From the NCBI GenBank assembly GCA_018175035.1, contig GCA_018175035.1_4099.2: a stretch of 33,238 bases of DNA, one strand, 5' to 3'. The translations under genes and the position numbers were made by a program. This stretch comes from a phage. Under the pieces are notes generated by a model that was not told the origin of the DNA, searched no databases, and worked only from the letters and a program-made list of their open reading frames with translations. Shown one piece after another: positions 2,432-28,465 of this stretch (positions within the stretch are counted from its first letter, which is position 1; each line of letters opens with the position of its first letter).

Positions 2432-2705
2432 ATCGAATGAAGTACTTGTTGCTGAAACAATGAAGATGGTTTATGCCATAACAACTAGTAATGATTTGTC
2501 TTACCCAATTAAGTCCAAGTTGAGGGATATAACTCTTCAGGTTATACAGCAGTACTACAAATCTAAACACAAAAGTATTATTAATGTTTATCGTGACTAT
2601 GAAAGGATTCGCATTTTGTTCTGGAACAAGAATCGAGTTCGTTCGGAATGTGATATAGAAAACTTTAAATTTGAGAATCTTTATTGTTACAAAGCGGGAC
2701 AATAG
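2421..2705 (+). CDS. Hypothetical protein
   Basis: First ATG (MANKSNEV...) inside track ORF 2403..2705, which starts at GTG. Confidence 0.5.
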   Translation: MANKSNEVLVAETMKMVYAITTSNDLSYPIKSKLRDITLQVIQQYYKSKHKSIINVYRDYERIRILFWNKNRVRSECDIENFKFENLYCYKAGQ

Positions 2706-2723
2706 CTCAAGTAGTGATATAAT
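2694..2723 (+). promoter_or_regulatory. Sigma70-like promoter with extended -10 (GTGATATAAT), weak -35
   Basis: TGaTATAAT at 2715-2723; -35 position reads CGGGAC; same 10-mer recurs at 11433 and 19136. Confidence 0.35.
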
Positions 2724-2763
2724 ATTGGATGAGGAACAATAACTAACACAAGGAGTGTGTAAA

Positions 2764-3687
2764 GTGCCAAGTAAAAAGCCAGATTCTGAAGTATTCAGAC
2801 TGGTTGATGAAAAATTGAGTTCAATTGGTTCATCGGTAAAAATGGATAGAACAACATACACTACTATATCAAACAAATCAACTTTTTTCTGTGATGAATG
2901 TGGGTTTAGTAAAAATATCATAGTTAGGAATGTGTACAAAAATGGAATATTTTGTCACTGTCCCACATTTAAAACTTTATATAATAAATTGGGTGAAATT
3001 AATTCAAAATTAAAATTAGATATTTCCACATTCACAACTACAAAAAACAAATCTAGATTTTATTGTGACGATTGTGCGTTTGAAAGATATATGACGGTGC
3101 ATGATGTTAAGTCTAGAGGTTCATATTGTAAATGTCATTCATCATATTGTATGCCGTTAGATATCGACGAAGCATATAACACTATTATGAATAAAATAAA
3201 AGATTACTCAAATACAATATATATGGATAAATCTACATACCGTGGTACACAATATAAGGTTAGATTTTATTGTACAGCGTGTAATTTTGACAAATATATT
3301 AATTATAGTAGAGTTAAATGTGGATCTCTTAACTGCAATTGTATCAGACCAATCCCAGAAGAAAGTAAATTATATATTTTAGGAATATATGAACAAAATA
3401 TTTTAATAAAATATAAAGTTGGTATTTCTACAAAGATTGATAAATCAAGACTAATTAGTATTAGGTCAAAAACTAATTTTATAGTAGAGGAATTATATTA
3501 TTTTACTGGAAATACCGAAGTTATTAAAAGTGTAGAATATAATATTTTAAATCTGCTTAAAAATAGTAGTAAATTGCCAAAGGATTATTTTGGTGATGGG
3601 TATACTGAAACATTTGATTTACAAGACATAAATCTTGTTATTGATTATGTATGTAAATGTTTACTCGAAAATAAATTAAAAATATGA
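2764..3687 (+). CDS. Cys-rich protein with three zinc-ribbon-like repeats and a C-terminal T5orf172/GIY-YIG-like domain (tentative)
   Basis: GTG start 8 nt after AGGAG (track start 2755 is also GTG); three repeats of (R)F(F/Y)C(D/T)xC...C(H/K/N)C; C-terminus YILGIY...KVGIS...GDGYTETFDL. Confidence 0.55.
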   Translation: MPSKKPDSEVFRLVDEKLSSIGSSVKMDRTTYTTISNKSTFFCDECGFSKNIIVRNVYKNGIFCHCPTFKTLYNKLGEINSKLKLDISTFTTTKNKSRFYCDDCAFERYMTVHDVKSRGSYCKCHSSYCMPLDIDEAYNTIMNKIKDYSNTIYMDKSTYRGTQYKVRFYCTACNFDKYINYSRVKCGSLNCNCIRPIPEESKLYILGIYEQNILIKYKVGISTKIDKSRLISIRSKTNFIVEELYYFTGNTEVIKSVEYNILNLLKNSSKLPKDYFGDGYTETFDLQDINLVIDYVCKCLLENKLKI

Positions 3688-3712
3688 AAATCATAAACAC
3701 AAGGAATGTGAA

Positions 3713-4441
3713 ATGATAGATAATATAAAATTTGCAACAGAAATGGCGAATCAACTCAATATTGCAAATTTCCAAATGTTAACATCTGTTATGGCTGAAC
3801 ATGCTGCGGCATATTCATCTAGCGGTATACAATGTGGACAAGCTAACATGTTAGCTGATGTTTATAGTGAAGTTCAAAGCAAACAATATAGCGTAAAGAC
3901 ATACAAGGATAAGTTCGTAAGTCTTTATATGAATGAAGATATTTCAGAAGACCGCAAATTCACCGATTTTATTATTGAACGCCGTATTAGTGGGGTTTCA
4001 GACCCAAATGCAGCAAGTGATATTGTATTCGATGAGGTATTAAAAGATATATATGAAAATGAATTGAAAAGTAAGAATCATTACAATGTACGTGAAACTA
4101 ACACAGTGCTAGTTGGATATGATGAAGACGACCAATATTTCTATTTTCGTATAACAGAAGTTCCATTTGAATATAAAAAACCATCCACTACATCGGTAAA
4201 AGAATTCACTGAGAAGAGTAAAAACTTCAAGAAACACGAAGGAAACCGTTGTAGTATTAATGGTTATGATGAAAATGGTGTTCATGTTTATGAATGGGTT
4301 TCACCTAATTGCCAAACATACACTCGTTGCTTGAAAAAACGTTATAATTTAGAAGAGCATGAATCATTCTATTTTAAAGTTAAGAAGCAAGGTTACACTC
4401 GCCCCGCCGATTCTGAATTGATGGGTATGATATATTTCTAA
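3713..4441 (+). CDS. Hypothetical protein
   Basis: ATG with AAGGA SD; 242-aa ORF. Confidence 0.65.
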   Translation: MIDNIKFATEMANQLNIANFQMLTSVMAEHAAAYSSSGIQCGQANMLADVYSEVQSKQYSVKTYKDKFVSLYMNEDISEDRKFTDFIIERRISGVSDPNAASDIVFDEVLKDIYENELKSKNHYNVRETNTVLVGYDEDDQYFYFRITEVPFEYKKPSTTSVKEFTEKSKNFKKHEGNRCSINGYDENGVHVYEWVSPNCQTYTRCLKKRYNLEEHESFYFKVKKQGYTRPADSELMGMIYF

Positions 4442-4451
4442 GGAAACTTCT

Positions 4452-4733
4452 ATGGATTTTTATCTACACACATGGACATACGAACAATATATTACATTAT
4501 ATCTTGAAATTATTAACACAGAACCTAGGTGTGGTTGTTGGTTCGCAGATATCATAAAAGAGTATGCTGACGAGTTCGAGTTTGTGTATCTTGGGTCTGA
4601 TATATTTGTAAAAAGTGTAGGTAAAACCGGACGAATCACTGATATAGATTACGACACTGTTAGTGTGAATTTCTATGTTGATTTTCCTGATGCTGGCGTT
4701 GATGGTGTATATTGTCTATATGAAATAATTTAA
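4452..4733 (+). CDS. Hypothetical protein
   Basis: ATG with AGGAAA SD; followed by terminator. Confidence 0.6.
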   Translation: MDFYLHTWTYEQYITLYLEIINTEPRCGCWFADIIKEYADEFEFVYLGSDIFVKSVGKTGRITDIDYDTVSVNFYVDFPDAGVDGVYCLYEII

Positions 4734-4740
4734 ATTTTAA

Positions 4741-4764
4741 GGCCAGCGTTTGCTGGTCTTTTTT
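4741..4764 (+). terminator. Rho-independent terminator
   Basis: Stem GGCCAGC / GCTGGTC (7 bp incl. one G-U), loop GTTT, then TTTTTT. Confidence 0.6.
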
Positions 4765-4777
4765 CGCAGGTACAAAG

Positions 4778-5080
4778 ATGCTCAGTATAGATTTAATTAA
4801 CAGTACTATCAAAATGTTGGCTGATTTGGTGAGACAATCAAATGGAACTTTATATTCTGCAATGTATAAAATGTTTGACCGATATATCAAGGATTGTAAC
4901 ATATCATTATATGGACTTGCTGTTGATATAGACGATTACTATGGAATTAATACTTCATATAAAACAGGAATTTTAATTGGTATTAATATAAAGATGGGGT
5001 ATTTCCCTTATTACTGTATAGGATTACCAGATAATACTTTGGTAGAATATCCAGCCAGTACTATTAAATTAAGAGGATAA
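4778..5080 (+). CDS. Hypothetical protein
   Basis: ATG ORF, 100 aa. Confidence 0.5.
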   Translation: MLSIDLINSTIKMLADLVRQSNGTLYSAMYKMFDRYIKDCNISLYGLAVDIDDYYGINTSYKTGILIGINIKMGYFPYYCIGLPDNTLVEYPASTIKLRG

Positions 5081-5087
5081 AACTAAA

Positions 5088-5666
5088 ATGAATGTATTAG
5101 AATTAAGTACTAAGCTGATTAGTATGCGTAATGAGTGGTACGATTGGTTTTATAATGGTACTGATATGGATTTTTCAAAATATCCATTTATGGAATCAGG
5201 ATGTGATGCAAGATACCGCTGGTTGAGCAAAGATTGTTCTGGTTTACATATTCTAGTTGACGATAGTGGTCAGGGAATTATAAAAGATTTACTTCAAGTT
5301 GAACAACTCGTCCATGATAATTGGTGTGATAACGATCCATACCTTGGAAATATGATTTATGTAAGTGAAGATGATTGCATATTCGTTATCCAGCGTCATG
5401 GTAATTCTATGTTTTATGTAGCAGACAGCAGTACTCCAGAAGGTGCAGCAGCCGATGGTCTTATGCCTAAGATTGATATATTGGAATTTGGATTACCTGA
5501 GCACTTCCAGATTAGTACTTTATACGATATTCCACCACTTGAGTTCTTTGAAGAATTTAAATTGTACTACAATGATCTTCAAAAATTGAGTACTGATCGA
5601 CGCATTGAAATAACTGTTAAGTACATGGACGGAACGAAATTAACTGATACGGGGATAGAATTTTGA
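5088..5666 (+). CDS. Hypothetical protein
   Basis: ATG with AAGAGGA SD; 192 aa. Confidence 0.65.
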   Translation: MNVLELSTKLISMRNEWYDWFYNGTDMDFSKYPFMESGCDARYRWLSKDCSGLHILVDDSGQGIIKDLLQVEQLVHDNWCDNDPYLGNMIYVSEDDCIFVIQRHGNSMFYVADSSTPEGAAADGLMPKIDILEFGLPEHFQISTLYDIPPLEFFEEFKLYYNDLQKLSTDRRIEITVKYMDGTKLTDTGIEF

Positions 5667-6352
5667 TTAAAGATTTAGATAGAATTTTATATGTACTAAG
5701 GGGTGTAATTACATTACATCCACAAATCAATCGAATTGAAAGTACATTTCAGTTGGAGTCAAGAGAAACTCCATATTCACATATATCAAATGTAGTTGGT
5801 TCACTCAGTACTGAAGACTCGCCTTACGATATTTGTGTATGTGAAGTACAACCAAGTTCGGATCTTGGATTTGCTATTTTTGATAAAAATCAAAATCTCA
5901 TTAGTATGTTTCAGTGCAATAATCCTTTTTGGAAAACATGCCTGTATCCAGAGTGGGCGATGCTTGATCCAACCAAGAGTACCATTAAAGTTTATGACTC
6001 TAAAAATGATGAAGTCGTTATTGATTTGGATGAGTCAATGTCAGAGGAAGAACACTTTCAGCTAATGATGATGCGTGCTATGCCTGAGTACAATGCAATG
6101 ATTAACACTGTGCAATACATTAAGGATACTATGCCATCATTGCGTACACATGAGTTTTGTCATCCTGTATTGTATGAACATTTGGATTTAGATTTCAGTA
6201 CTATTAAATTTAAAGATAGTGTTATTAGATATATCCAAGAGGTTACTAAATTTGATTTTATTAGTACTATGAACAATAATCCAAAAACTAATTTTAGGCA
6301 TCAGTACAATGAATCTTTGTCCGGTGGACGCGATACAAGTTGGTGGAAATAA
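5663..6352 (+). CDS. Hypothetical protein
   Basis: TTG start overlapping upstream stop, GGGGA SD 8 nt upstream; 229 aa. Confidence 0.55.
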   Translation: MIKDLDRILYVLRGVITLHPQINRIESTFQLESRETPYSHISNVVGSLSTEDSPYDICVCEVQPSSDLGFAIFDKNQNLISMFQCNNPFWKTCLYPEWAMLDPTKSTIKVYDSKNDEVVIDLDESMSEEEHFQLMMMRAMPEYNAMINTVQYIKDTMPSLRTHEFCHPVLYEHLDLDFSTIKFKDSVIRYIQEVTKFDFISTMNNNPKTNFRHQYNESLSGGRDTSWWK

Positions 6353-6353
6353 T

Positions 6354-6617
6354 ATGAATATTAAAGATAGATTACAATTACTATACACTATTGAACAGGC
6401 TGCTTTTGAACTTGTTAATAAAATCTCCGAAGAACTTCCCAAAGGAACTATAGTTCGTGTAATTGAGAGGGATTATGAATCTGGAGAAATTGAAGAACTA
6501 GTACTAACCGTGAATAAAGTAACATACTATGAATCTGAGTTGGCTATCCAATGTATATCGGAAGATGGTAAAATATACTATTATGACACTGGTGTAGATA
6601 TAGAGGTAATAAAATGA
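6354..6617 (+). CDS. Hypothetical small protein
   Basis: ATG 6354 directly after upstream TAA, GGTGGAAA upstream; track start 6309 would overlap upstream gene by 44 nt. Confidence 0.5.
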   Translation: MNIKDRLQLLYTIEQAAFELVNKISEELPKGTIVRVIERDYESGEIEELVLTVNKVTYYESELAIQCISEDGKIYYYDTGVDIEVIK

Positions 6618-7756
6618 CCCTTTTACAAATATATGAAGATTTAATGCACTTATGTAATACAAACGATGCGTTTTTTTATGTGGATCATAAAAGTCCTGCT
6701 GGTGGTACGTATCGTGTATTCAGTTATCGTCTAGCATCATACACTGATTTCATGCAACCAAATGCGTTGGAAACCCGTGGCTCTATGTGGGAAATTGATG
6801 AAGAAGGTGACATGATACGTTGTGCAGCACGTACAATGAAAAAGTTCTTCAATGCTTACGAGAATCCTGCTACAATGTTCCCTGCTAACACCACATGCGA
6901 TGACATTGCGGTAGTGATGCCTAAGTTGGATGGTTCGATTATCAGTACTTATCGTGATAATGATGGTGAGATTCGTTGTAAATCACATACTGCATTGTAT
7001 TCTGACCATGCGATTAACAGTACTCGACTTATTAACGAGAACCAGAATTTGTACCAGTACATCGACGAAGCGGAACGTTTAGGTTACACAGTTAATATGG
7101 AGTATACAAGCCCAGAGTACCGAATTGTATTACCATATCAGGTAGAACAACTGTTTGTACTGAACGTTCGACATCGTGTGAGTGGTGAGTTGCTATGTGG
7201 TAAAGCACTACGTGATAAGTTTCCATGTCTTGCACAGTACAGTACTAATATGACTGGAAAAGATATTCATCACACTTTTCCGGTACGAAATACCTTCCGT
7301 GAAAGCGTGGAGGAAGTTCATAAAATGCTTGATATTGAGGGTTTTGTGTGCATCCTAAATAATGGGACAATGTGTAAAATAAAGACTGACTGGTACAGTT
7401 CATTACATCTTACAAAAGATAGTATTATTATTGATTCTCATTTATATGAAGCAGTATTAAATGGTTCAAGTGATGATTTAAAACAATTGTTCAGTACTGA
7501 TGAATATGCTATGCAAAAGATATTAAGAATGGAACAATTGGTATTTTCGTGCTATAATGCATTACAAGATGAAGTAGAAAGCTTCGTCAAGGAACACAAG
7601 CACTTGGAGCGAAAGGAATTCGCAATGAAGGTTCAGGAGTGTTTAACTAATGAACTGAATCGTCAGGGCTTGGCCTTTGCAATGTATAACAATAAGAAAG
7701 TTGATTACAAAGAGACTCTTATAAAATACATGAAAATTGTACTAAAGGATTTTTAG
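6614..7756 (+). CDS. rnlA: RNA ligase 1 (T4 Rnl1 / gp63 family)
   Basis: N-terminal region closely resembles T4 Rnl1 as I recall it (FFY..D...G.TYR.FSY..ASY.D...P.ALE.RG...E.D....R...R.M.KFFN..ENP.TM); KxDGS nucleotidyl-lysine motif (PKLDGS); ~380 aa. Confidence 0.9.
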   Translation: MTLLQIYEDLMHLCNTNDAFFYVDHKSPAGGTYRVFSYRLASYTDFMQPNALETRGSMWEIDEEGDMIRCAARTMKKFFNAYENPATMFPANTTCDDIAVVMPKLDGSIISTYRDNDGEIRCKSHTALYSDHAINSTRLINENQNLYQYIDEAERLGYTVNMEYTSPEYRIVLPYQVEQLFVLNVRHRVSGELLCGKALRDKFPCLAQYSTNMTGKDIHHTFPVRNTFRESVEEVHKMLDIEGFVCILNNGTMCKIKTDWYSSLHLTKDSIIIDSHLYEAVLNGSSDDLKQLFSTDEYAMQKILRMEQLVFSCYNALQDEVESFVKEHKHLERKEFAMKVQECLTNELNRQGLAFAMYNNKKVDYKETLIKYMKIVLKDF

Positions 7757-7786
7757 TACTATCTAGCCTAAGCACAAGGAGAAGTG

Positions 7787-8041
7787 ATGGCTAAACCTAA
7801 GTATAAAAATGACGGTTCCCTTTCTCCGACTGAGTTCAGGAAAATACAAGAAGAAATCGATGAATTACAGCACAAACGCTCAATGAAAGGTGTGAAGATA
7901 AGTAAGAAACGAATCGAGAATACCTTCGGATGTAGTAGTACTGAATACAAGAAGAAAAGGAAACCAAAAGGTGTTAAGCCGAGAATACATGATGTAACTC
8001 GCTATACATCGAAACGTGAAAATAAATTTGATCCACTATAA
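7787..8041 (+). CDS. Small highly basic (Lys/Arg-rich) protein, possible nucleic-acid binding
   Basis: ATG 5 nt after AAGGAG; track start 7784 is GTG. Confidence 0.55.
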   Translation: MAKPKYKNDGSLSPTEFRKIQEEIDELQHKRSMKGVKISKKRIENTFGCSSTEYKKKRKPKGVKPRIHDVTRYTSKRENKFDPL

Positions 8042-8050
8042 GGAGTTCAT

Positions 8051-8281
8051 ATGAAAGTTGAAGTTCAGCATAGTATTGTTCAGGATATGTCAGTAGTTAA
8101 ATTTCTTTCTCTGAAAGATTACTTCAGATGTATCAAGTTCCTAGAAGAATCTCAATTACAGTGGACCCCATTAAAGTACAGTTCATCCAATGATACTGCT
8201 AGTATTCGTTGTGATGAATCTGTACTTGTGAAAATCTCCAAGCGATTTGGAGTAGGAAAAGTTAATGAGCACAGTAAGTGA
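8051..8281 (+). CDS. Hypothetical small protein
   Basis: ATG with GGAG SD. Confidence 0.55.
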   Translation: MKVEVQHSIVQDMSVVKFLSLKDYFRCIKFLEESQLQWTPLKYSSSNDTASIRCDESVLVKISKRFGVGKVNEHSK

Positions 8282-8519
8282 CCTAAAATACTACAACAAA
8301 ACTGCGGATACGTTTATTACTCATTTATATGAAGAATTTAGTCGTATCCGTAAGGAATATACAGGTAAATGTATTTTATATAGTTCTTATCATAGTGGTG
8401 GAATTGAAAGTGCTTACATTACTAAAGTGAAGTTTTCTGATGACTATCAATTACTCTTTGAATTAGATGATTGTTTCGTTATTGAAGCTTGTTTGATAGT
8501 GGATGTTCTAGATAATTGA
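8265..8519 (+). CDS. Hypothetical small protein (paralog family B-like, YTGKCILY)
   Basis: ATG ORF overlapping upstream gene by 17 nt. Confidence 0.5.
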   Translation: MSTVSDLKYYNKTADTFITHLYEEFSRIRKEYTGKCILYSSYHSGGIESAYITKVKFSDDYQLLFELDDCFVIEACLIVDVLDN

Positions 8520-8525
8520 GGACAT

Positions 8526-8840: not shown

Positions 8841-8852
8841 CAAGGAGTAATA

Positions 8853-9785: not shown

Positions 9786-9789
9786 TACA

Positions 9790-9820: not shown

Positions 9821-9852
9821 TAAGGTACATTATAGTGAATGTAACAACACAG

Positions 9853-10271: not shown

Positions 10272-10522
10272 TGTTTGAGCAGGACTTAGAGATATTCAAA
10301 AGTTATATTGATTACTTGACTATATTAGAAAATGATTTAACTACAAAGTACAAAGGCATTCGTGTTCTGTGCTGGTATGATGATTGGGATTATAAACGTG
10401 AACTCACGATTGATCGAATTTATTTCAGTGACGGTGTACTAAATGTACATGGTGTAAATGATTTTGGTCATTCATATACATATTCTAATAATGCTAAATT
10501 TAAAAGGATCTACAATGAATGA
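10268..10522 (+). CDS. Hypothetical small protein, paralog family B
   Basis: ATGA overlap; motif DLTTKYKGIRVLCW. Confidence 0.55.
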   Translation: MMFEQDLEIFKSYIDYLTILENDLTTKYKGIRVLCWYDDWDYKRELTIDRIYFSDGVLNVHGVNDFGHSYTYSNNAKFKRIYNE

Positions 10523-11110: not shown

Positions 11111-11416
11111 ATGGATATACAAACATTCAATAAACTTAAGTACTATGATAATGGTTTTGCATTAATAATTAACGAACTTGATGGAATACCATACGAATAT
11201 CATAATCAATTAATGAAGATAATAAAATGTATATGTGAAGAATTAAAAAGTATATTTAAAAATGAATATGTTTATGATTTAGGTAATAGTAGCAAAAAAC
11301 TATACATAAAGAAATTCTGGGGAACGCATTGCGGTTTGATGGTCGATTTAGGTTTAAGTTTAGACGATAATTCTGAATCATGTTCATTATATATAGATGA
11401 AATGCGAATATCATGA
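11111..11416 (+). CDS. Hypothetical small protein
   Basis: ATG immediately after upstream TAA. Confidence 0.55.
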   Translation: MDIQTFNKLKYYDNGFALIINELDGIPYEYHNQLMKIIKCICEELKSIFKNEYVYDLGNSSKKLYIKKFWGTHCGLMVDLGLSLDDNSESCSLYIDEMRIS

Positions 11417-11456
11417 GACGTATCAGAATTCGGTGATATAATTTGATTACATCACC
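11414..11456 (+). promoter_or_regulatory. Sigma70-like promoter (extended -10 GTGATATAAT) embedded in inverted repeat GGTGAT-N13-ATCACC
   Basis: TGaTATAAT at 11434-11442; -35 position TGAGAC; inverted-repeat arms 11432-11437 and 11451-11456. Confidence 0.35.
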
Positions 11457-11473
11457 AATAGGGAGAAGTTGAA

Positions 11474-11800
11474 GTGAATGGTTCGTTTTTAACAATATTA
11501 GAAAAGACAACCGAGATGCTTTCTAGCTCGTTAATGCAGATTTTCAGTACTAATAATTTATACAATACCCAGGTGTTAGATTCAATTAATAATAACTATG
11601 TGGTAAGTATATCTGATGAAATATGTCCATTTAACGCGTATTCAATTTATAGTGTAGAAGAGTTTCGTATATCCGAGATTCGATGTGGTTTTGGTGCTTG
11701 GTTAGTTCTAAATGAACGTTCAGGGTTGTCTTTATACATCGAAGAAGTTAGTAAATTTATATACAAAGGAGTAGAATATGTTAACCCCAATTATTCTTAG
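11474..11800 (+). CDS. Hypothetical protein
   Basis: GTG start 7 nt after GGGAGA SD; 108 aa. Confidence 0.5.
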   Translation: MNGSFLTILEKTTEMLSSSLMQIFSTNNLYNTQVLDSINNNYVVSISDEICPFNAYSIYSVEEFRISEIRCGFGAWLVLNERSGLSLYIEEVSKFIYKGVEYVNPNYS

Positions 11801-12954: not shown

Positions 12955-13205
12955 TGTTCAACACTGACTTATCACATCTGCGATATCTTATGTCTTTGGC
13001 TGATGATTTTATAAATGATCTGAAGCCAAAATATATTGGTCAAGAAGTACGATTAATAAACTCCAGAGGGTATGGAAAGTATATTATTACTGATATGTAT
13101 ATTAGTGGTGGTGAATGGCGTTTTAAAATTAATACTTATCTTAAAGATGGTTCTTTTGCTGGAACACAAGTTACTAAACACACTAATATTATATGGTTGG
13201 AGTAA
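12954..13205 (+). CDS. Hypothetical small protein, paralog family B (KYIGQEV)
   Basis: TAATG overlap; motif DLKPKYIGQEVRLIN. Confidence 0.55.
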   Translation: MFNTDLSHLRYLMSLADDFINDLKPKYIGQEVRLINSRGYGKYIITDMYISGGEWRFKINTYLKDGSFAGTQVTKHTNIIWLE

Positions 13206-13207
13206 TA

Positions 13208-13951
13208 ATGAAACACTTCTTAGAAGTAACCGTACCTGATGATAAAGATTTATACATTGTAGGTGATTTGCATGGTAATGGTAAACTATGGGATGCTACA
13301 GTGAAAGAATTTGGTATTACACACAATGATTATGTTTTCAGTGTAGGTGATATTATCGACCGTGGAGAACAAAATTCAAAGCTCCTTTTTGAATTTTTGT
13401 TCGGAGAAAATCGTTACATGATTGCGGGTAATCATGAGATGATGTGCGTTGATTCGGAAACACTTCGAGATTGGTATCATTGTTGGATAAGTAATGGTGG
13501 TGATAAATTCCTTGATGAAGTTGGAGGAACAGGCATTCAATTCTTTCGTCAGTACTTAAAGGATCTCCCTATGATTATCCAAATCAATCACCGAGGATTG
13601 AAGATTGGGTTAGTTCATGCTGGTGTTCCGTTGGAATATACAACATGGGAACGATTTGTTAATGGGACAAAATCACTTAGTGCTGATATAATTGATAAGT
13701 GCTTGTGGGATAGAAAAACATTCGATTATTGTAGAACTAATAATACATATTATGCACCTAAGTTAGATGGAGTGCATTGTGTCTTTAGTGGACATACAGC
13801 AGTTACAGATCCACTCATTTACGGTAATCGCATTTGGATTGATAGTCAGTTCTTGACGGGTGACTTAACTCTCGCTACTCCACAAAGTGGTGGAATGAGA
13901 TACTTACGTAAAGAAAAAGATGAGTACTCATTCAATCGTTTCAAAAGGTAA
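13208..13951 (+). CDS. PPP-family Ser/Thr phosphatase-like metallophosphoesterase (lambda PPase / ApaH-like)
   Basis: Motifs GDLHG, GDIIDRG, GNHE; ATG 13208 with GGAG SD just after upstream stop (track start 13193 overlaps upstream gene). Confidence 0.8.
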   Translation: MKHFLEVTVPDDKDLYIVGDLHGNGKLWDATVKEFGITHNDYVFSVGDIIDRGEQNSKLLFEFLFGENRYMIAGNHEMMCVDSETLRDWYHCWISNGGDKFLDEVGGTGIQFFRQYLKDLPMIIQINHRGLKIGLVHAGVPLEYTTWERFVNGTKSLSADIIDKCLWDRKTFDYCRTNNTYYAPKLDGVHCVFSGHTAVTDPLIYGNRIWIDSQFLTGDLTLATPQSGGMRYLRKEKDEYSFNRFKR

Positions 13952-19115: not shown

Positions 19116-19116
19116 T

Positions 19117-19145
19117 TTGGACATTTTAAATCTTAGTGATATAAT
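19117..19145 (+). promoter_or_regulatory. Sigma70-type promoter TTGGAC-N17-TATAAT with extended -10
   Basis: -35 TTGGAC 19117-19122; 17-bp spacer; TGaTATAAT 19137-19145; about 35 nt upstream of the ClpP gene. Confidence 0.6.
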
Positions 19146-19179
19146 ACTCACAACAACGAAATAATAGAGGAAATTAATA

Positions 19180-19875
19180 ATGGTTGAACAATTCATGTTT
19201 GGTGGTTATGCTAATGGCGAAGTACGTAACATTTCTATTCCTTACGTAGTTGAGAAAGTTAATGGTTCAGAACGTACATATGATCTAGCATCTCGTATGA
19301 TGCAAGACCGTATCATTTTCCTTGATACTGATTTCAATGATCAAATGGCACATATCATCAAACAACAATTGGTATGGTTAGACTCACAAGGTGATTCCCC
19401 TATTACATTCTACATTAGTTCACCGGGTGGTTCAGTACACGCAGGTTTGGGTATTGCAGATGTTGCTAAGTCTTGTATTTCCCCAATTCGCACTGTAGTT
19501 ATGGGTTATGCAGCATCAATGGGTTGCTATACACAATCTGTTATTGGGACTAAAGGTTTCCGTTTAGGTGGTAAACGCTCATACTTCATGTGTCACCAAG
19601 TAAGTTCTGGTACACAAGGTCTAATTACTGACCAGAAGATTTCACTTAAACATTCTGATGCCCTAAACACTCTATTGACTAAAGAAATTGCAGAAGCAGT
19701 TGGTGTATCACACGAACAACTACTGAAAGATGCGGATCGTGACCTGTGGTTGAACGCTGAAGAAGCACTCGAATACGGTGAACATGGTTTCATTGATGGT
19801 ATCATCCTCGGACCACGCAACGAAGAAGGTAAGTATCTCGTCAAACGTCGCGGTGGCGTTGAAGAGTGGGTCTAA
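19180..19875 (+). CDS. clpP: ClpP-family serine protease proteolytic subunit
   Basis: Strong ClpP pattern: YSRMMQDRIIFL, SSPGGSV.AG, catalytic Ser in GYAASMG, His in MCHQ, Asp in DRDLW, C-terminal EALEYG. Confidence 0.85.
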   Translation: MVEQFMFGGYANGEVRNISIPYVVEKVNGSERTYDLASRMMQDRIIFLDTDFNDQMAHIIKQQLVWLDSQGDSPITFYISSPGGSVHAGLGIADVAKSCISPIRTVVMGYAASMGCYTQSVIGTKGFRLGGKRSYFMCHQVSSGTQGLITDQKISLKHSDALNTLLTKEIAEAVGVSHEQLLKDADRDLWLNAEEALEYGEHGFIDGIILGPRNEEGKYLVKRRGGVEEWV

Positions 19876-20217: not shown

Positions 20218-20218
20218 T

Positions 20219-20665: not shown

Positions 20666-20676
20666 TATTACAAATA

Positions 20677-22521: not shown

Positions 22522-22550
22522 AAAAAAGGAGCCACAAGGCTCCTTTTTTG
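22520..22550. terminator. Bidirectional Rho-independent terminator between convergent genes
   Basis: A-run, stem AGGAGCC / GGCTCCT, loop ACAA, T-run; symmetric so functional on either strand. Confidence 0.65.
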
Positions 22551-22928
22551 TTAACCAGGGATGTTACAATAATACAAATCCCAAGGGTGATATTTCATTT
22601 CTCCAGTACTCAATTTAATTTTATGAAACTGGAATGATTCGGCAAATGCACTATCATCAATCTTAATACAAAAAGTATTTTTTGCTAAAGTTGGTGCAAT
22701 CTCTAGTGCAGTTTTAGATGCATCTAATCTGATTTTATCTTTATCAAAACTTGTTATAGTTACAAAACGATAAACATTAAAATCAGTGTCGATAAGATCG
22801 TAAACACAACTAGAACGTTGATTAAAGATGTTCAAGTTATATTTCAATTCACCGTTTATATTAGCGGCGGTTACACAAAAGCCGCCGATATTGAATGGTA
22901 ATTTACCTTGTGCTGCTATAGCTTTCAT
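22551..22928 (-). CDS. Hypothetical protein (125 aa); the only convincing minus-strand gene
   Basis: ATG preceded on the minus strand by AGAGGA at 8 nt; stop abuts the bidirectional terminator; competing + strand ORFs here lack SD. Confidence 0.55.
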   Translation of the reverse strand: MKAIAAQGKLPFNIGGFCVTAANINGELKYNLNIFNQRSSCVYDLIDTDFNVYRFVTITSFDKDKIRLDASKTALEIAPTLAKNTFCIKIDDSAFAESFQFHKIKLSTGEMKYHPWDLYYCNIPG

Positions 22929-23080
22929 ATTTTATTTCCTCTTATTAATAAACAACTACTTTTACAGATTGTTGTACCTTTTATATTTACACCGTCAACT
23001 AAATATCCACCTAAAGTGAATGGAAATTGGTCTTGTCCTGCGATTGGTTTTCCCATTAAGGGCACTCCTTATAAAAAAGC

Positions 23081-23110
23081 TTTACATTTGGTATGTGTTT
23101 GTGATAGAAT
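23081..23110 (+). promoter_or_regulatory. Candidate sigma70 promoter TTTACA-N18-TGaTAGAAT
   Basis: -35 TTTACA 23081-23086; extended -10 TGaTAGAAT 23102-23110. Confidence 0.4.
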
Positions 23111-23175
23111 CTTCACAGTGATTGTACTAAGGGGATTATCAGATGAGGGAAATTTGAGTTAAGTACAGAAAAAGT

Positions 23176-23204
23176 TTGACTTAAGTGTTTAAGTACTATA
23201 TTAT
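23176..23204 (+). promoter_or_regulatory. Candidate sigma70 promoter TTGACT-N17-TATTAT
   Basis: -35 TTGACT 23176-23181; -10 TATTAT 23199-23204; about 35 nt upstream of the 23238 gene. Confidence 0.45.
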
Positions 23205-23237
23205 TTATATCTTCCTAACCAAAATTAAGGATTTGTT

Positions 23238-23846
23238 ATGAAAAGACTATGGCTTGAGGTAGTACAAGCAGTAATGCTTCTGATGTTGATAAATTTTCCA
23301 GCCAGTGCTGGTATTGAAAGTAAAAATGTGATAAAGTACAATCCTGAAACACGTAATGTATATTTCATCTCAGATATTACGGATGGGTCACTAAAGCGTA
23401 TGATGGAGTTGTATGATAAAGAACACTATGATACCATTACCATCACATCGCCAGGTGGTGATTTTGATGCTGGGATTAAAATGGCAAACTTCGTTAGAGA
23501 CAATGGTATAAATTTAATTGTTTCTAGGTATTGCAACTCAGCATGTACTGTGGTATTCTTCAGTGTAGCTTTTGAAAAGCGATACATGATAAATCGCTCA
23601 GTACTGGGTCTTCATAACATTTCGATTAAAAGTAATGTTACTGATGGTGATAATTCATTTGTGTCTGTAAGACAGCTATCAACTTTTACCGAAGAAATGG
23701 CAACAAAGGTAGGTTTCCTTTTTTCACTATATGCAGCAAATGGAATCCCACCAGAAGTTCTATTTAGAGTTAGTCGTTCTCGTGGTGAAGATGTTGTAAT
23801 ATTAACAAAACCAGAACTGGTTTTTTACGGTTCAGTCAAACAATAA
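23238..23846 (+). CDS. Secreted (signal-peptide) ClpP/S49-like serine peptidase-fold protein
   Basis: N-terminal hydrophobic signal (LLMLINFPASAG); ClpP-like SPGGDFDAG, then CNSAC and GLHN in ClpP Ser/His positions; AAGGA SD. Confidence 0.55.
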   Translation: MKRLWLEVVQAVMLLMLINFPASAGIESKNVIKYNPETRNVYFISDITDGSLKRMMELYDKEHYDTITITSPGGDFDAGIKMANFVRDNGINLIVSRYCNSACTVVFFSVAFEKRYMINRSVLGLHNISIKSNVTDGDNSFVSVRQLSTFTEEMATKVGFLFSLYAANGIPPEVLFRVSRSRGEDVVILTKPELVFYGSVKQ

Positions 23847-23916
23847 AAATAATTAAAATAACAGGATGATTATGATGTACTTCCTTTGTTATTAATTATA
23901 TTGAGATTATATAACT

Positions 23917-24177
23917 ATGACAAACATCCAAAACTTGACATCTATTATTTTTTATGCTACTGTAGTAATGTATGCTACAGTTATTTTTCTAACAGTTTTC
24001 ATTTACAAAGATTATCGTAATGGCTTTATTGATCCAACTACAATGAAGTTCAATTCAAAATTCGAAGCAATAATTTATTATGTACTATCAACTTCATACT
24101 TGGTGTGCCTAATGTTGTTAGGAGCACTAATTTATATCTTATACACAACATTATTTGCAATTGGAGCTATTTTATGA
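23917..24177 (+). CDS. Small integral membrane protein (two TM helices)
   Basis: ATG ORF; hydrophobic segments. Confidence 0.5.
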   Translation: MTNIQNLTSIIFYATVVMYATVIFLTVFIYKDYRNGFIDPTTMKFNSKFEAIIYYVLSTSYLVCLMLLGALIYILYTTLFAIGAIL

Positions 24178-24767
24178 CCTGTATTATTGCACACACTGAC
24201 GGAGTAAGTTCTTTTATTGCTGGGGATAAGTTAGGAAGCAATGGATTTACAAAAACTGTTCAAACTGAGCCAAAGGTATTCGAGAAAGAATTTATCAAGT
24301 TACATGATGATGGACTAACTAGAACTAAAGAAGTAATGGCATTGGGTTATACTACATCATTTCGTATGGGTCAGTTGTTAAATTATAACCTTAATTTACC
24401 TGAACAAGATGCTAGTCAAACATTTTCACAATATTTGGTTCTTAAAGTTATTCCAATCATTCGTCAAATGTTTAAAGAAGAATGGGGTGCACGAGATGCA
24501 TCACAAGATGTAGGTGGTGGACAATTTATCATTCTCCACAATCATACAATCTATGAAGTTCAAGAAGACTTTTCAGTACTACAACCTAAAACAAGAATTA
24601 CCGCAGTAGGTAGTGGGACATATCATGCAATTGCAGCAATGCAAGCATATATTGAAGTTGAGAACGAATCTAAAAAACCACTACACGAACGTATCAAATC
24701 AATTTTTAAAATTGTTAGTGATAATGTAACAAGCGTAAGCGAAGAGTTTGATGTTTTAAAATATTAA
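24174..24767 (+). CDS. HslV/proteasome beta-subunit-like N-terminal-nucleophile hydrolase
   Basis: ATG 24174 (ATGA overlap, GGAG SD); N-terminus MTCIIAHTDG...IAGD parallels HslV MTTIVSV...IAGD with Thr at position 2; C-terminal AVGSGTYHAIAA parallels HslV AIGSGG.YA.AAA. Confidence 0.7.
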   Translation: MTCIIAHTDGVSSFIAGDKLGSNGFTKTVQTEPKVFEKEFIKLHDDGLTRTKEVMALGYTTSFRMGQLLNYNLNLPEQDASQTFSQYLVLKVIPIIRQMFKEEWGARDASQDVGGGQFIILHNHTIYEVQEDFSVLQPKTRITAVGSGTYHAIAAMQAYIEVENESKKPLHERIKSIFKIVSDNVTSVSEEFDVLKY

Positions 24768-24794
24768 AAGTACTAATATTATAAGAGAGAATAG

Positions 24795-24989
24795 ATGATG
24801 GCATACACAATTTATGAATGGGTTTTGAGTTTTTTTATAGTTTTTTCTATTGTTGTAATTTATAACAATGCTAAATGCTTATATAGAGACTTGAAATCCA
24901 ATGGTTATCACAAAGATAATAATTTTATGTATGCCTATCATATTGGAATCATTCTGTTATTATCAATATATTTAATTGTTTTTTTATAA
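24795..24989 (+). CDS. Small membrane protein
   Basis: ATG ORF; two hydrophobic segments. Confidence 0.4.
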   Translation: MMAYTIYEWVLSFFIVFSIVVIYNNAKCLYRDLKSNGYHKDNNFMYAYHIGIILLLSIYLIVFL

Positions 24990-24998
24990 GGATTGAAT

Positions 24999-25751
24999 AT
25001 GATATCAGAAAAATTTATAAGCAATGAAGGTAAAAAGCGATTACTGATTATATCAGGTGCAGGACTTTCTGTTGAAAGTGGTATGGAACCTTTTCGATTT
25101 GATGATGGTTTGTGGGATACATTTAAAATTAATGATGTATGTAACATTGCTAGTTTAACTACGAAATATCACGTTGTTCATTCCTTCTATAATACATTAC
25201 GTGTAAAATTGGGACAATGCGAACCCAATGCAATGCATTATTTTATAAAATCGTTAGAAGATCAATATGGTGATTGCTTCCTTCATATGACTTCTAACAT
25301 GGACGATCTTTATACTCGTATTGGTGGTCATGAGCTTAAACTTCATGGAAACTTGTGCGAAGTTATTGAAAATTATAGTATCAATTCCGATGATTATAAT
25401 GTTATTAACTGCGGATACGAACCATACATACCAAAACATGATGTTTTTGCTAAACCAAATGTAGTAATGATTGGAGAATATCATCGTTATGTTGATGGTA
25501 TTCGCTTACCAATTTACGAAGAACGAAATAATGTGTTGAAATCTCTTAATGAAAATGATACAGTTATTGTAATTGGTAGTAGCGATACAGTACTGGTATG
25601 GTCGAGATTAGCAGCAGCATTACCATGTTATAGTGTTAATGTTAACATTCGTAAAAATGATAATGATTTTTTGTTTAATGAAAAAGTTATCAAGCCAGCA
25701 ACCAAAGCAATACCGCATCTAGAGACTATAATTAAGGAACGTATGAAATGA
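24999..25751 (+). CDS. Sir2 (sirtuin) family protein, NAD-dependent deacylase / ADP-ribosyltransferase fold
   Basis: Sir2 motifs GAGLSVESGMEPFR (GAGxS...SGxPxFR), TSNMDDL (T/QNxDxL), LHGN, VVMIGE, VIVIGSS; no obvious 4-Cys zinc ribbon; ATG after AAGGA (track start 24993 is TTG). Confidence 0.75.
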   Translation: MISEKFISNEGKKRLLIISGAGLSVESGMEPFRFDDGLWDTFKINDVCNIASLTTKYHVVHSFYNTLRVKLGQCEPNAMHYFIKSLEDQYGDCFLHMTSNMDDLYTRIGGHELKLHGNLCEVIENYSINSDDYNVINCGYEPYIPKHDVFAKPNVVMIGEYHRYVDGIRLPIYEERNNVLKSLNENDTVIVIGSSDTVLVWSRLAAALPCYSVNVNIRKNDNDFLFNEKVIKPATKAIPHLETIIKERMK

Positions 25752-26299
25752 GTGTTAAAGAAGTTCCCTTTGGTGAATATGGCACACGTGCAAATTTTGT
25801 ATTTTGTTATTTCTTTGCAAGAAAATGCAACCCTTACAAAAACTATGAGTTGAATGATATACCAGAAGTAAATTTAGTATTACTGCAATTACGATGGGAT
25901 GGTCTTCTTGGTGGATGTGGTGGAACCGTAGAAAGTACTGATATCTCACTAGAAGATGCGTTGCGTCGTGAAGTTCAAGAAGAAATGGATTACAATATTT
26001 TTGTTTCCCATCTTCGACCACTCAAAACTTTTGAAATTTACCCAGGTGCAAACAGTCACAGTTTTAGCTATGAAGTAACCTATGACGAGTTGAAACACAT
26101 TAGAGATGGATACACTAATGCTAAACATGCAAGTGCAGAAGTTGCTGGTGTAAATTTATGTCATATTTCTCGTTATTCTAAGGGACAAAATCGAGAAGCG
26201 GGATATAATAATCTTATGACACAGAACTTCATCGGTACAGCAAAACAAGAATTGGAGTATCTGGTTCAAAAAGAAAACTTACTAATTAGTTATCTATAG
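25748..26299 (+). CDS. Putative Nudix-fold hydrolase (divergent Nudix box)
   Basis: ATGA overlap with Sir2 gene; GGCGGTVE...LRREVQEEMDY resembles Nudix box Gx5Ex7REUxEExGU with a 4-residue insertion and D in place of the last G. Confidence 0.45.
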   Translation: MSVKEVPFGEYGTRANFVFCYFFARKCNPYKNYELNDIPEVNLVLLQLRWDGLLGGCGGTVESTDISLEDALRREVQEEMDYNIFVSHLRPLKTFEIYPGANSHSFSYEVTYDELKHIRDGYTNAKHASAEVAGVNLCHISRYSKGQNREAGYNNLMTQNFIGTAKQELEYLVQKENLLISYL

Positions 26300-26308
26300 G
26301 AGTTTAAC

Positions 26309-26629
26309 ATGTCTTACTCAATGTTTTTGGATGATATTCGTGATGCAAATCTATATTATCCAAACCAAGATATGGTGGTATGTCGTGACTTTAAAAGTGC
26401 ATGTGAATATGTTATTGAAAATGGAATTCCAGCATTTGTATCATTCGACCATGACTTGGGTGATGTGAGCGAAGACGAAAAGACTGGATATTCTTTTGCT
26501 AAGTTTCTTATTGATTATATGTTTGATAATAATATTAAAGAACCGTTTGAGTACTTTGTTCACAGTAGTAATCCTGTTGGTAAAATTAATATTGAAACAT
26601 ACTTAAACAATGGATTTAACTCATTATGA
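26309..26629 (+). CDS. Receiver-like domain protein resembling the cyclic-phosphate-processing receiver (CPR) family (tentative)
   Basis: Pattern FLDDIR...SFDHDLG...TGY...HSSNPVG matches my recollection of this family; AGGAG SD 8 nt upstream. Confidence 0.45.
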   Translation: MSYSMFLDDIRDANLYYPNQDMVVCRDFKSACEYVIENGIPAFVSFDHDLGDVSEDEKTGYSFAKFLIDYMFDNNIKEPFEYFVHSSNPVGKINIETYLNNGFNSL

Positions 26630-26928
26630 TTCAAACACACATCAAAAGTCTTATTTGTACTGTTCTGTTAGGTGCAGGAGTTCTTTGGTTCGGACAGTAT
26701 CACGAGAACACTAAGCGTACCAACATTCACTACAATACCGCAGAAGTTGTTAGTTTAGGACAATGTAGCGAGTCCAAATGTTCATTTATGTATAAAACCC
26801 AAAGTGGTGAAGTACGTAATGGACTATCAAGAGAACCAGTTTCAATTGGTCAACTTGTTTACCAGGAGTGCTGGGAAGAAAAGGTTCGAGGTTCACGTTG
26901 CTATGTTGAATACGAACCAAATATGTAA
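26626..26928 (+). CDS. Membrane-anchored / exported Cys-containing small protein
   Basis: ATGA overlap; N-terminal hydrophobic helix; four Cys. Confidence 0.5.
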   Translation: MIQTHIKSLICTVLLGAGVLWFGQYHENTKRTNIHYNTAEVVSLGQCSESKCSFMYKTQSGEVRNGLSREPVSIGQLVYQECWEEKVRGSRCYVEYEPNM

Positions 26929-26952
26929 TAATCCGAGTCAATAACATTAGTC

Positions 26953-26985
26953 GAGTACAAGGATGTACTCATAACTCAAGGATGT
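26953..26985 (+). promoter_or_regulatory. Hairpin plus 9-bp direct repeat CAAGGATGT overlapping the PhoH ribosome-binding site
   Basis: Stem GAGTACA / TGTACTC with loop AGGA (26953-26970); CAAGGATGT at 26958-26966 and 26977-26985, second copy carries the SD. Confidence 0.3.
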
Positions 26986-26988
26986 TTT

Positions 26989-28428
26989 ATGAAAAAATAT
27001 ACAATTGACACAAACGTACTACTATCTGACCCTAATGCATCTATTGCTTTTGATGGTGCTGCAATCATTCTACCATTTACAGTACTGGAAGAATTGGATT
27101 CAATTAAGAGTCGTAATGTAGATGTTTCACGCGATGCTCGTGTTGCTATTCGTAACATTGAAGCAATTATTGCAGATGCATCACATGATGAGATTAGTAG
27201 TACTGGTGTTAATATTGCTGATGTTCATACCAATATGAATCCTGATAGCAAATTGTTTGTTATTACAAACGAAGAAGCTGAAGCACTAATTCGTACTAAA
27301 GGTTCAGAAGAGAAAGTTCAAACCCTTCTCAAAAGCACAGTACCTGATGATAAAATCATTCTGGTAGCTTTAGCAACAGAATCAGTACTGGTAACTCGTG
27401 ATATCAACATGCGTATCAAAGCACTAAGTTATGGTGTCGAGGTACAAGATTATCGCCATGATATTGTTATTGGTGATAGTGATTTGATTCACATTGGTCA
27501 ACACCATTTGGAAATTAATTTTTGGGAAGTATATAGCAACTTATCCAATACTAATATTCAATCCGAACAAGTTGGTCGTCGTTTGTATCATTACATTTCT
27601 AAAAGCTTGATTGAACATTTGCTTCCACAAAATCTATGCATCGGTGATTATCTATATGATGATGCAGACGTATTATTTGTGTACGAAGGTCAATCAGCAA
27701 TTGAGGAAGATGATGGAACACTAACACCAGAAGATATTTTGGTATTCCAAGATATTGGACAATCAGTAGCTTTACGTGCTAAAGTATGGGATATTAAAGC
27801 AAAGAATATCCAACAAGCACTCGCCATCAACAGTATTCTCGATCCTGATGTACATCTAACAGTACTGCTAGGTTCTGCTGGTACTGGTAAAACACTAATT
27901 ACGATTGCTACTGCATTAGAATTAGTACTGGAAAAACGTAAATACGACCGAATCATCTTCTCTAAAACTCAAGACTCACAGTTTGAAGATATTGGTTTCT
28001 TGCCAGGTTCAGAAGCAGAAAAAGTGATTCCATTCTGTGGAGCCGCAATTGACGCGTTAGAGTTTCTTCATAAAGATGATGCTAACCCACAAGGTAGTAT
28101 TGAAGAGATTATGAAACGTAATGTTATTCAATTTAAAGCACTAAACTTTGTACGTGGACGTTCATTCACCAACACTATTCTAGTAGTTGATGAATTCCAA
28201 AACATTACACCTGCACAAGCCAAAACAATCTTGACACGAGCAGGATTAAACTGTAAAGTAGTAATTATGGGTAACTTGAGTCAGATTGACAGTAAGTTTA
28301 TTAGTCCTGTTAACAGTGGTTTGACATATGTAACTGAGAAGTTTAAAGATTGGGCAGGTTGTCGTGTCATCGAACTAGAAGGTGTTGTTCGTTCACCACT
28401 TGCAGAATTTGCTGAAGAAAATATGTAA
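26989..28428 (+). CDS. phoH: PIN-domain PhoH-like ATPase (PhoH2/YlaK-type)
   Basis: N-terminal PIN-like region (YTIDTNVLLSDP...LEELD); Walker A GSAGTGKT, Walker B VVDEFQN; 479 aa. Confidence 0.85.
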   Translation: MKKYTIDTNVLLSDPNASIAFDGAAIILPFTVLEELDSIKSRNVDVSRDARVAIRNIEAIIADASHDEISSTGVNIADVHTNMNPDSKLFVITNEEAEALIRTKGSEEKVQTLLKSTVPDDKIILVALATESVLVTRDINMRIKALSYGVEVQDYRHDIVIGDSDLIHIGQHHLEINFWEVYSNLSNTNIQSEQVGRRLYHYISKSLIEHLLPQNLCIGDYLYDDADVLFVYEGQSAIEEDDGTLTPEDILVFQDIGQSVALRAKVWDIKAKNIQQALAINSILDPDVHLTVLLGSAGTGKTLITIATALELVLEKRKYDRIIFSKTQDSQFEDIGFLPGSEAEKVIPFCGAAIDALEFLHKDDANPQGSIEEIMKRNVIQFKALNFVRGRSFTNTILVVDEFQNITPAQAKTILTRAGLNCKVVIMGNLSQIDSKFISPVNSGLTYVTEKFKDWAGCRVIELEGVVRSPLAEFAEENM

Positions 28429-28431
28429 TAT

Positions 28432-28465
28432 TGTATGGGACATTATGTCCCATACATGATATAAT
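28432..28465 (+). promoter_or_regulatory. 25-bp near-perfect palindrome (12-bp arms) overlapping a promoter with extended -10
   Basis: Arms 28432-28443 / 28445-28456 (TGTATGGGACAT-T-ATGTCCCATACA); TGaTATAAT 28457-28465; -35 position GGGACA inside the palindrome. Confidence 0.4.

Follow-up and report, generated by a model that had tools for sequence, protein, structure and literature searches.

The closest described counterparts of the promoters treated here are those predicted in Pectobacterium phage CBB by Buttimer et al. (2017; PMC5259590, Table S6), who distinguished three classes. Class one is RpoD-like with an UP element and is concentrated in a presumed early region that contains the sigma gene; class two, called "Promoter 1" or "divergent RpoD-like", reads TGAAACG-N13-(R)TGnTATAAT, has 18 copies that lie mostly near DNA-synthesis genes and before a gp55-like gene, and was also reported for Cronobacter phage GAP32; class three is an ATAAATA late class (PMC5259590). 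The CBB paper names neither a reader nor a time of use for Promoter 1, and the link to a sigma recognition helix drawn below is made in the present work. Here we describe a promoter class of the same build that recurs in a 33,238-nucleotide (nt) stretch of phage DNA (GenBank assembly GCA_018175035.1, contig GCA_018175035.1_4099.2), which as a whole is called "the window". We use "class 2" for these GGGAC-type, "middle-type" promoters.

The window motif aligns base for base with CBB Promoter 1, having the same register, a 7-nt box, a 13-nt spacer and (R)TGnTATAAT. The Promoter 1 pattern, TG(A/G)(A/G)A(C/T)N 13 nt upstream of TGnTATAAT, is found at the window sites, two of them with a 14-nt gap. 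The differences are in the box, which is TGGGACA here (GGGAC, GAGAC or TGGAC) versus TGAAACG in CBB, and in the 14-nt spacer variant. Both phages fall in the same clade, the RaK2-like jumbo myoviruses that encode a sigma-70-family factor; for the window this is known through gp167 of its relative 121Q, the sigma gene itself lying outside the window. In both, the targets are DNA-synthesis genes and a gp55-like gene (in 121Q the replication genes and gene 591; in the window RNA ligase, phosphatase, ClpP-like, nudix and PhoH-like genes), and the class co-exists with canonical RpoD-like and ATAAATA late classes. In Asteriusvirus, class 2 represents a type of promoter that had been predicted before in sister genera; new here are a full catalogue for Asteriusvirus and a covariation that points to the phage sigma.

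Bacterial extended -10 sigma-70 promoters share with class 2 a TG at -15/-14, a consensus TATAAT and a poor match to TTGACA, but class 2 also has a conserved, lineage-dependent box at the -35 position, which a -35-independent promoter would not need. Phage-encoded sigma-70-family factors with promoters of their own are known from SPO1 (gp28), phiEco32 (gp36) and phage 7-11 (PMC8948821); in those systems, as in the scheme proposed below, an early phage sigma redirects the host core polymerase to conserved phage promoters. The promoters of SPO1, phiEco32 and 7-11 are unlike the host's, whereas here the -10 cannot be told apart from the host's and the -35 alone is phage-specific, phage XaC1 being the exception. 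The RaK2 paper is without a promoter analysis, and the PA5oct RNA-seq paper reports only TTGAC/TATAATA promoters. The literature searched yielded neither an analysis of promoters in Asteriusvirus phages nor any transcriptome or mapped transcription starts for RaK2-like enterobacterial phages.

Class 2 sites in the window

The window matches the Escherichia jumbo phages G17, Sharanji, 121Q, PBECO4 and phAPEC6 at 96-97% identity (96% of the first 25 kb), the figure for G17 and 121Q being 96.6%; by this measure its source is an Asteriusvirus jumbo coliphage, a genus with genomes of about 350 kb. Its counterpart is the 196-229 kb region of 121Q. This is a plus-strand block of genes for RNA ligase, polynucleotide kinase, phosphatase, DNA ligase, ClpP-like proteases, dCMP deaminase, Sir2, nudix and PhoH-like proteins.

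The earlier note on this DNA, made from the letters alone, had reported a recurring early promoter module with an extended -10 in four copies, and these are all present. The exact 10-mer GTGATATAAT stands at 2714, 11433 and 19136, always on the plus strand (3 against 0.33 expected; three or more in 0 of 100 dinucleotide shuffles), and the variant ATGATATAAT at 28456. The four lie in intergenic gaps, as had been said (2706-2754, 11417-11473, 19116-19179 and 28429-28496), and the elements at their -35 position do end in GAC: CGGGAC, TGAGAC and TTGGAC end 17 nt before TATAAT, and the box at 28436 is one base further upstream. In each case the start codon follows the -10 at a rigid interval (31, 31, 34 and 31 nt).

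Four was an undercount. The 9-mer TGATATAAT has 7 copies in the window against 1.72 expected, the additional ones at 558, 13684 and 25047 (minus strand); those at 558 and 25047 are without an upstream -35 box and were rejected as members of the class. The composite RRAC-N14-TGNTATAAT gives 4 matches and RRAC-N15-TGNTATAAT gives 2, each against 0.06 expected and with none on the minus strand. Altogether the window holds seven plus-strand copies of tGGGACa-N13/14-TGnTATAAT, one of them weaker, and the three that the first reading missed each lie in the 3' part of a gene (7530-7558, 13663-13692 and the weaker 26181-26209). The seven are as follows, with bit scores against a matrix derived from 121Q; ORF denotes an open reading frame.

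2695..2723, plus strand: class 2 promoter; CGGGACA (2695-2701), 13-nt spacer, TGATATAAT (2715-2723); 27.3 bits; 31 nt upstream of the GTG start of ORF 2755-3687; orthologous 121Q site 198847.
7530..7558, plus strand: class 2 promoter; TGGAACA-N13-TGCTATAAT; 30.1 bits; within the 3' end of the RNA ligase gene 6614-7756 (Pfam), the next ORF starting at 7784; 121Q orthologue 202733.
11414..11442, plus strand: class 2 promoter; TGAGACG-N13-TGATATAAT; 25.3 bits; 31 nt upstream of ORF 11474-11800; 121Q orthologue 206617.
13663..13692, plus strand: class 2 promoter; TGGGACA-N14-TGATATAAT, 14-nt spacer; 22.8 bits; within the calcineurin-like phosphatase gene 13193-13951 (Pfam Metallophos); 121Q orthologue 208867.
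19117..19145, plus strand: class 2 promoter; TTGGACA-N13-TGATATAAT; 30.5 bits; 34 nt upstream of the ClpP-like protease gene 19180-19875 (Pfam CLP_protease).
26181..26209, plus strand: weaker candidate member; AGGGACA-N13-GGATATAAT, GG replacing TG; 17.4 bits; inside the nudix hydrolase gene at its 3' end, with ORF 26309-26629 beginning 99 nt further on; 121Q orthologue 221377.
28436..28465, plus strand: class 2 promoter; TGGGACA-N14-TGATATAAT, 14-nt spacer; 23.0 bits; 31 nt upstream of ORF 28497-28685; 121Q orthologue 223633.

All six strong sites are conserved in 121Q. The copies head short plus-strand operons: an endonuclease insert with its downstream gene, the genes after RNA ligase, ORF 11474, the genes after the phosphatase, the ClpP-like gene, ORF 26309 and ORF 28497.

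Class 2 sites across the 121Q genome

Genome-wide counts for class 2 and for canonical promoters were made on the complete genome of 121Q, a close relative of the source phage. Among its 85 plus-strand TGnTATAAT sites, 15 have G[AG][AG]AC ending exactly 14 nt before the TG, against 0.26 expected, and virtually none has it at other offsets or on the minus strand. A position weight matrix built from 24 seed sites found, at a threshold of at least 10 bits, 40 sites on the plus strand, none on the minus strand and 0-4 in shuffled genomes. This is the genome-wide motif search that the earlier note had called for, and it supports the claim of a phage-specific promoter class that combines an extended -10 with a non-canonical GGAC-type -35 element. 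By a crude gene call, 22 of the 43 matches at 8 bits or more are intergenic, and most stand 14-46 nt upstream of a start codon.

The architecture of the class is an A-rich stretch, a box T-G-G-G-A-C-A (G or A allowed at positions 2-4), a spacer of 13 or 14 nt, and a nearly invariant extended -10, (G/A)TG(A/C)TATAAT. The sequence logo is also conserved at positions that were not selected for, namely a T before the box, an A after it, the A-rich stretch upstream, a purine before the TG, a G after TATAAT, and a T followed by a purine at +7/+8. Since T plus purine is conserved there, a transcription start about 8 nt downstream fits, and we infer that class 2 transcripts begin about 7-8 nt downstream of the -10. 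Class 2 sites in 121Q precede ssb (two in tandem), gene 11, primase, exonuclease, topoisomerase II, a methyltransferase, the tRNA cluster, a ClpA-like gene, the DNA polymerase region and gene 591, which encodes the gp55-like late sigma.

Strand bias, positions, gene targets and conservation in 121Q together argue that these sites are promoters and not a dispersed repeat, and on this sequence evidence we have high confidence that they are functional promoters of a distinct class. That they might be no promoters at all, and only a recombination or endonuclease target scattered through the genome or a chance AT-rich word, seems to us very improbable. TATAAT-like words are common in a genome of about 33% G+C, and a generic sigma-70 scan of the window was indeed at chance (105 matches against 114 expected; 85 against 78); the composite motif, however, is about 50-fold above shuffles, its strand bias is strict and its spacing to start codons fixed, and from genus to genus the arrangement of the two boxes is retained, with the sequence between them free to vary. 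The generic scan, which scored class 2 sites only as 10-11/12 matches, was dropped as a means of defining the class because of its chance-level total. An Rfam scan of the window gave no families at the gathering score.

Three promoter classes and the probable timing of class 2

Canonical promoters form a second set. On its plus strand 121Q carries 32 perfect TTGACA-N16-18-TATAAT sites, versus none on the minus strand (0.25 in shuffles), many of them with an A-rich UP-like stretch; in the window there is no perfect canonical TTGACA/TATAAT promoter. The region from 75 to 175 kb of 121Q, where small ORFs are separated by gaps, holds 20 of the 32 canonical promoters versus 3 of 39 class 2 sites. 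Tested against TTGACA, the class 2 logo has G/G where TT is expected and is not close to the canonical hexamer. Canonical promoters, perfect and near-perfect, at 87672 and 87993 of 121Q precede the operon that ends in the sigma gene, 167. A k-mer enrichment in upstream regions returned three types of signal only, TAAATA-like (late), TTGAC-like and TATAAT-like; the TAAATA-type words are a separate enriched class, and class 2 differs from the T4-type late motif TATAAATA.

The earlier note had taken the class to be early. That label is probably wrong for class 2, to judge by three observations: the canonical class is separate and lies mostly at 75-175 kb, class 2 sites stand before genes for replication, for nucleotide metabolism and for the late sigma, and the -35 box co-varies with a phage sigma across genera (below). 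We consider it fairly probable that class 2 is instead a middle class dependent on a phage-encoded factor; the reader of the box, the timing and the start sites are all points that we infer.

The 135-155 kb region of 121Q, presumably immediate-early, carries a dense array of near-identical canonical promoters, aaaaaatagtTTGACA-N13-cTGTATAAT, before almost every small ORF. In this array the TG abuts TATAAT directly, versus TGn in class 2.

The -35 box varies with the recognition helix of a phage sigma factor

The 121Q protein gp167 is a sigma-70-family factor with regions 2, 3 and 4 and has homologues in 91 phage records; gp591 is a late sigma according to PHROGs. We aligned the phage sigmas to E. 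coli sigma-70 and took as the recognition helix the positions equivalent to R584-Q589 (RERIRQ). The promoter of the ClpP-like gene is class 2 in the window, 121Q and A4 (TGTAGACA..TGATATAAT in A4), whereas the EJP2 gene has a canonical TTGACA-N16-TATAAT promoter instead, and no promoter was found upstream of the gene in RaK2, CBB or 7t3. This site is therefore unusable for a test of covariation, and the boxes were taken from 50-kb replication modules, those of CBB coming from the published table.

121Q: helix RSSIHR; box GGGAC, GAGAC or TGGAC.
A4: helix RSSVHR; box surveyed at two sites only.
BF17: helix RSSLHR; box surveyed at one site only.
7t3: helix RTSLHR; box TTGGGAC.
EJP2: helix RCTIHR; box TTGAGA(C/T).
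RaK2: helix RGTLHY; box (T/C)TGAAC.
CBB: helix KATLSR; box TGAAACG.
XaC1: helix KPTLSR; box TGAAAC(A/G).

Across six lineages the -35 box co-varies with the helix, RxSxHR going with GGGAC and KxTLSR with GAAAC, a relation that is correlative. The 7t3 sigma is nearer to that of CBB (45-47%) than to that of 121Q (38-40%), yet it has a helix and box of the 121Q type; the RaK2 sigma is closest to that of 121Q, yet helix and box both differ. Thus, the box follows the recognition helix and not the overall relatedness of the sigmas. The boxes of XaC1 and EJP2 were predicted from their helices before the promoters were read, and the prediction was exact for XaC1 and within the predicted G-containing group for EJP2. 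The XaC1 -10 has changed as well, to an invariant CTATACT without TG, and the XaC1 sigma alone has N in place of V at the position equivalent to E458, and R at the position equivalent to Q437. A code of one residue to one base was tried and rejected, RaK2 having the His and an A-rich box; only covariation at the level of groups is claimed.

Around the sigma gene itself we made some further observations. Some phages, BF17 for example, match the window here at 96% DNA identity and yet carry a sigma that shares only 59% identity with the 121Q protein; the recognition helix is preserved despite this (RSSLHR in BF17, RSSIHR in 121Q). From these comparisons the sigma gene appears to be exchanged or fast-evolving within Asteriusvirus. 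At 90232-90955 of 121Q a terminator hairpin directly after the sigma gene is followed by a class 2 promoter and then by about 700 bp without an annotated gene; some of the sequence in this stretch is conserved among 121Q, BF17 and A4 (for example GCGAACAGCAAAAGAAACCCGTTAGATGTGGGCATAGTTTGAACC), and RaK2 has the same layout. The stretch may be a phage non-coding RNA; Rfam found in it only terminator-like small-RNA tails.

Which factor reads class 2 promoters

The explanation that we favour, and think rather probable as a whole, is that class 2 sites are genuine phage-specific middle-type promoters within a cascade that would pass from host sigma-70 to the phage sigma and then to a gp55-like factor. 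Host sigma-70 holoenzyme would first use the canonical TTGACA/TATAAT early promoters, among which those of an early operon would supply the sigma-70-family factor (the 121Q gp167 homologue). This factor would bind the host core RNA polymerase and read class 2 promoters, its divergent region-4.2 helix recognising the GGGAC box, and class 2 promoters would in turn express the gp55-like factor, the presumed reader of TAAATA-type late promoters. The reasons for preferring "middle" to "early", and for naming the phage sigma as reader, are the covariation and the presence of three promoter classes for three sigma-type factors. For the narrower statement that the reader is the phage sigma, the balance tips only slightly in favour.

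A broader form of the proposal, for which we hold the case to be evenly poised, is that RaK2-like jumbo phages carry diversified sigma/promoter pairs, in which the region-4.2 helix of each genus co-evolved with a private -35 box; the window promoters would then be the regulon of that sigma and the middle stage of a three-sigma cascade. In this broader form R-x-S-x-H-R would be paired with GGGAC, K-x-T-L-S-R with GAAAC and R-G-T-L-H-Y with TTGAAC, with a host-type extended -10 kept except in XaC1.

Several points weigh against the phage sigma as reader. The class 2 -10 is a perfect host sigma-70 extended -10, and in the phage sigma W433/W434 are replaced by S/T and H455/E458 by Y/V, with Q437/T440 replaced in 121Q by M/Y. 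Because lineages that differ at those residues share TGnTATAAT, -10 recognition by the phage sigma is unexplained; the A-11 pocket residues F419, K426, F427, T429 and Y430 are kept, so that recognition of TAnnnT is plausible and it is the TG that lacks an explanation. At a spacing of 17-18 nt, the RaK2 box TTGAAC agrees with TTGACA in 4 of 6 positions and would therefore work with host sigma. The covariation comprises six lineages and perhaps two or three independent changes, the reader could be another co-evolving phage protein, and the presence of the sigma gene in the source phage is assumed from relatives that are 96-97% identical. For no member of the phage clade did the literature searched offer transcript 5' ends, timing or biochemistry.

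These same features bear on the simplest rival, that unmodified E. coli sigma-70 reads TGnTATAAT with GGGACA as a degenerate -35, the class being early or delayed-early and the phage sigma serving some other purpose. The -10 is a perfect sigma-70 consensus, the phage sigma is without the sigma-70 residues for recognition of -12 and of the TG, and the box, which counts as a 4/6 match to TTGACA at 16-nt spacing, stands in the same register as TTGAC would with a 16-nt spacer; the RaK2 box resembles TTGACA, and the TTGACA-type promoter of the EJP2 ClpP orthologue suggests that the two types are interchangeable. We nevertheless think host sigma-70 an unlikely sole reader. The TT, which are the best-conserved positions of the sigma-70 -35, are replaced by a conserved G/G in a genome that has 32 perfect TTGACA promoters elsewhere, and the XaC1 sequence TGAAAC-N13-nnCTATACT, having no TG, would be a poor sigma-70 promoter and is invariant all the same. 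The box also changes between phage genera in step with the phage sigma helix, while host region 4.2 is not known to do so, being essentially invariant, as far as is known, among the hosts of these phages. Furthermore, with host sigma-70 reading class 2, no other motif would be left for the phage sigma to read. E. coli sigma-70 holoenzyme is expected to transcribe from a perfect TGnTATAAT when the DNA is naked, irrespective of what is used in vivo, and an in vitro test with host RNA polymerase, of the kind that had been suggested for these promoters, is for this reason not discriminating. Host sigma-70 may use class 2 promoters too, at least early or in vitro.

The other rival is an appropriation of host sigma-70 as at the middle promoters of T4, where the MotA box (a/t)(a/t)(a/t)TGCTTtA is centred at -30. 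Host sigma-70 would read the -10, and a DNA-binding phage activator, with or without an AsiA-like protein that remodels region 4, would bind the GGGAC box. The likeness is considerable: a phage upstream element joined to a host-like -10 is the established logic of MotA/AsiA, and the T4 middle promoters likewise stand before replication genes and the late sigma gene (gene 55) and act, as class 2 would, between early and late. We still judge this arrangement quite improbable, less so only than the absence of promoters dismissed above. The element is a TGGGACA in the -35 register here and a TGCTT box at -30 in T4, and a full-length sigma-70-family factor is encoded here. No MotA/AsiA homologue was detected in 121Q by tblastn, a weak negative in that the T4 MotA/AsiA queries were approximate sequences; matches reached only E >= 0.055, and the weak match has no Pfam AsiA match, although remote homologues could be missed. 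Covariation of the box with a sigma region-4.2 helix, which the phage sigma as reader would account for, is not predicted by an unrelated activator.

Inverted repeats and neighbouring features

Two inverted repeats overlap class 2 promoters of the window.

11432..11456, unstranded: inverted repeat GGTGAT-N13-ATCACC; covers the extended -10 together with the region where transcription is predicted to start; -6.6 kcal/mol.
28432..28456, unstranded: perfect 11-bp palindrome TGTATGGGACA-TTA-TGTCCCATACA, directly after the stop codon of the PhoH-like gene; -15.7 kcal/mol.

The first had been pointed out in the earlier note as enclosing a promoter copy, and it exists as described; as a feature of the class it did not hold up. 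With one arm in the extended -10 and the other within +1 to +22, inverted repeats of 6 bp or more occur in 6 of the 40 members versus 2.6 expected (permutation, P=0.011 before correction for four tests) and those of 5 bp or more in 11 versus 9.4 (P=0.26). When the -35 region is paired with downstream sequence, the 40 members show no enrichment. With so marginal an enrichment across the class the repeat was rejected as part of the promoter module. Of the six longer repeats, three belong to the window region, and a local regulator may act at them.

The left arm of the second repeat contains the -35 box of promoter 28436, and by its sequence the palindrome looks like a terminator-type hairpin fused to a promoter. 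Similar fusions of hairpin and -35 are found in 121Q at 10459 and in the GGGTTGACTTCGGTCAGCCC promoters. The same fusion logic is seen in a repeated unit, aaaGGGTTGACTTCGGTCAGCCCtttt-TGCTATAAT, at 98698, 109279, 110561 and 112729 of 121Q and also downstream of the BF17 and A4 sigma genes, where a TTGACT -35 hexamer lies in the 5' arm of a terminator-type hairpin.

Directly 3' of the promoter at 2695-2723 the window has an insertion of about 960 bp relative to 121Q (2768-3733). Its ORF 2755-3687 encodes a 310-amino-acid endonuclease-like protein (phrog_681, E=6e-21; no match in Pfam). The insert uses the original Shine-Dalgarno sequence and start, and ACACAAGGA(A/G)TGTG is re-created before the displaced gene (3713); from this arrangement it looks like a free-standing homing endonuclease that has captured a class 2 promoter.

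The one clear minus-strand gene of the window is ORF 22551-22928, which in 121Q is an Ig-domain virion protein. A strong bidirectional terminator hairpin of 12 bp, AAAAAAGGAGCC-TTGT-GGCTCCTTTTTT (22522-22549), flanks this gene, which forms a late-gene islet within the plus-strand block.

Significance for Asteriusvirus and its relatives

These results amount to a transcription map for Asteriusvirus (121Q, PBECO4, G17, phAPEC6, Sharanji and others), with at least about 32 canonical early promoters, about 40 of the GGGAC type and a late class. In annotation the motif marks the starts of operons, including promoters internal to genes, and it shows the apparent capture of a promoter by the homing-endonuclease-like insert. 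Class 2 suggests a job for a conserved and uncharacterised phage sigma-70-like factor, and the covariation across genera makes the question of the reader addressable by a simple swap. If the phage sigma is the reader, these phages supply a natural set of differing -35 specificities built on one scaffold; and if the sigma/promoter pairs have indeed diversified genus by genus, they would provide a readable amino-acid-to-base code for -35 recognition together with orthogonal sigma/promoter parts.

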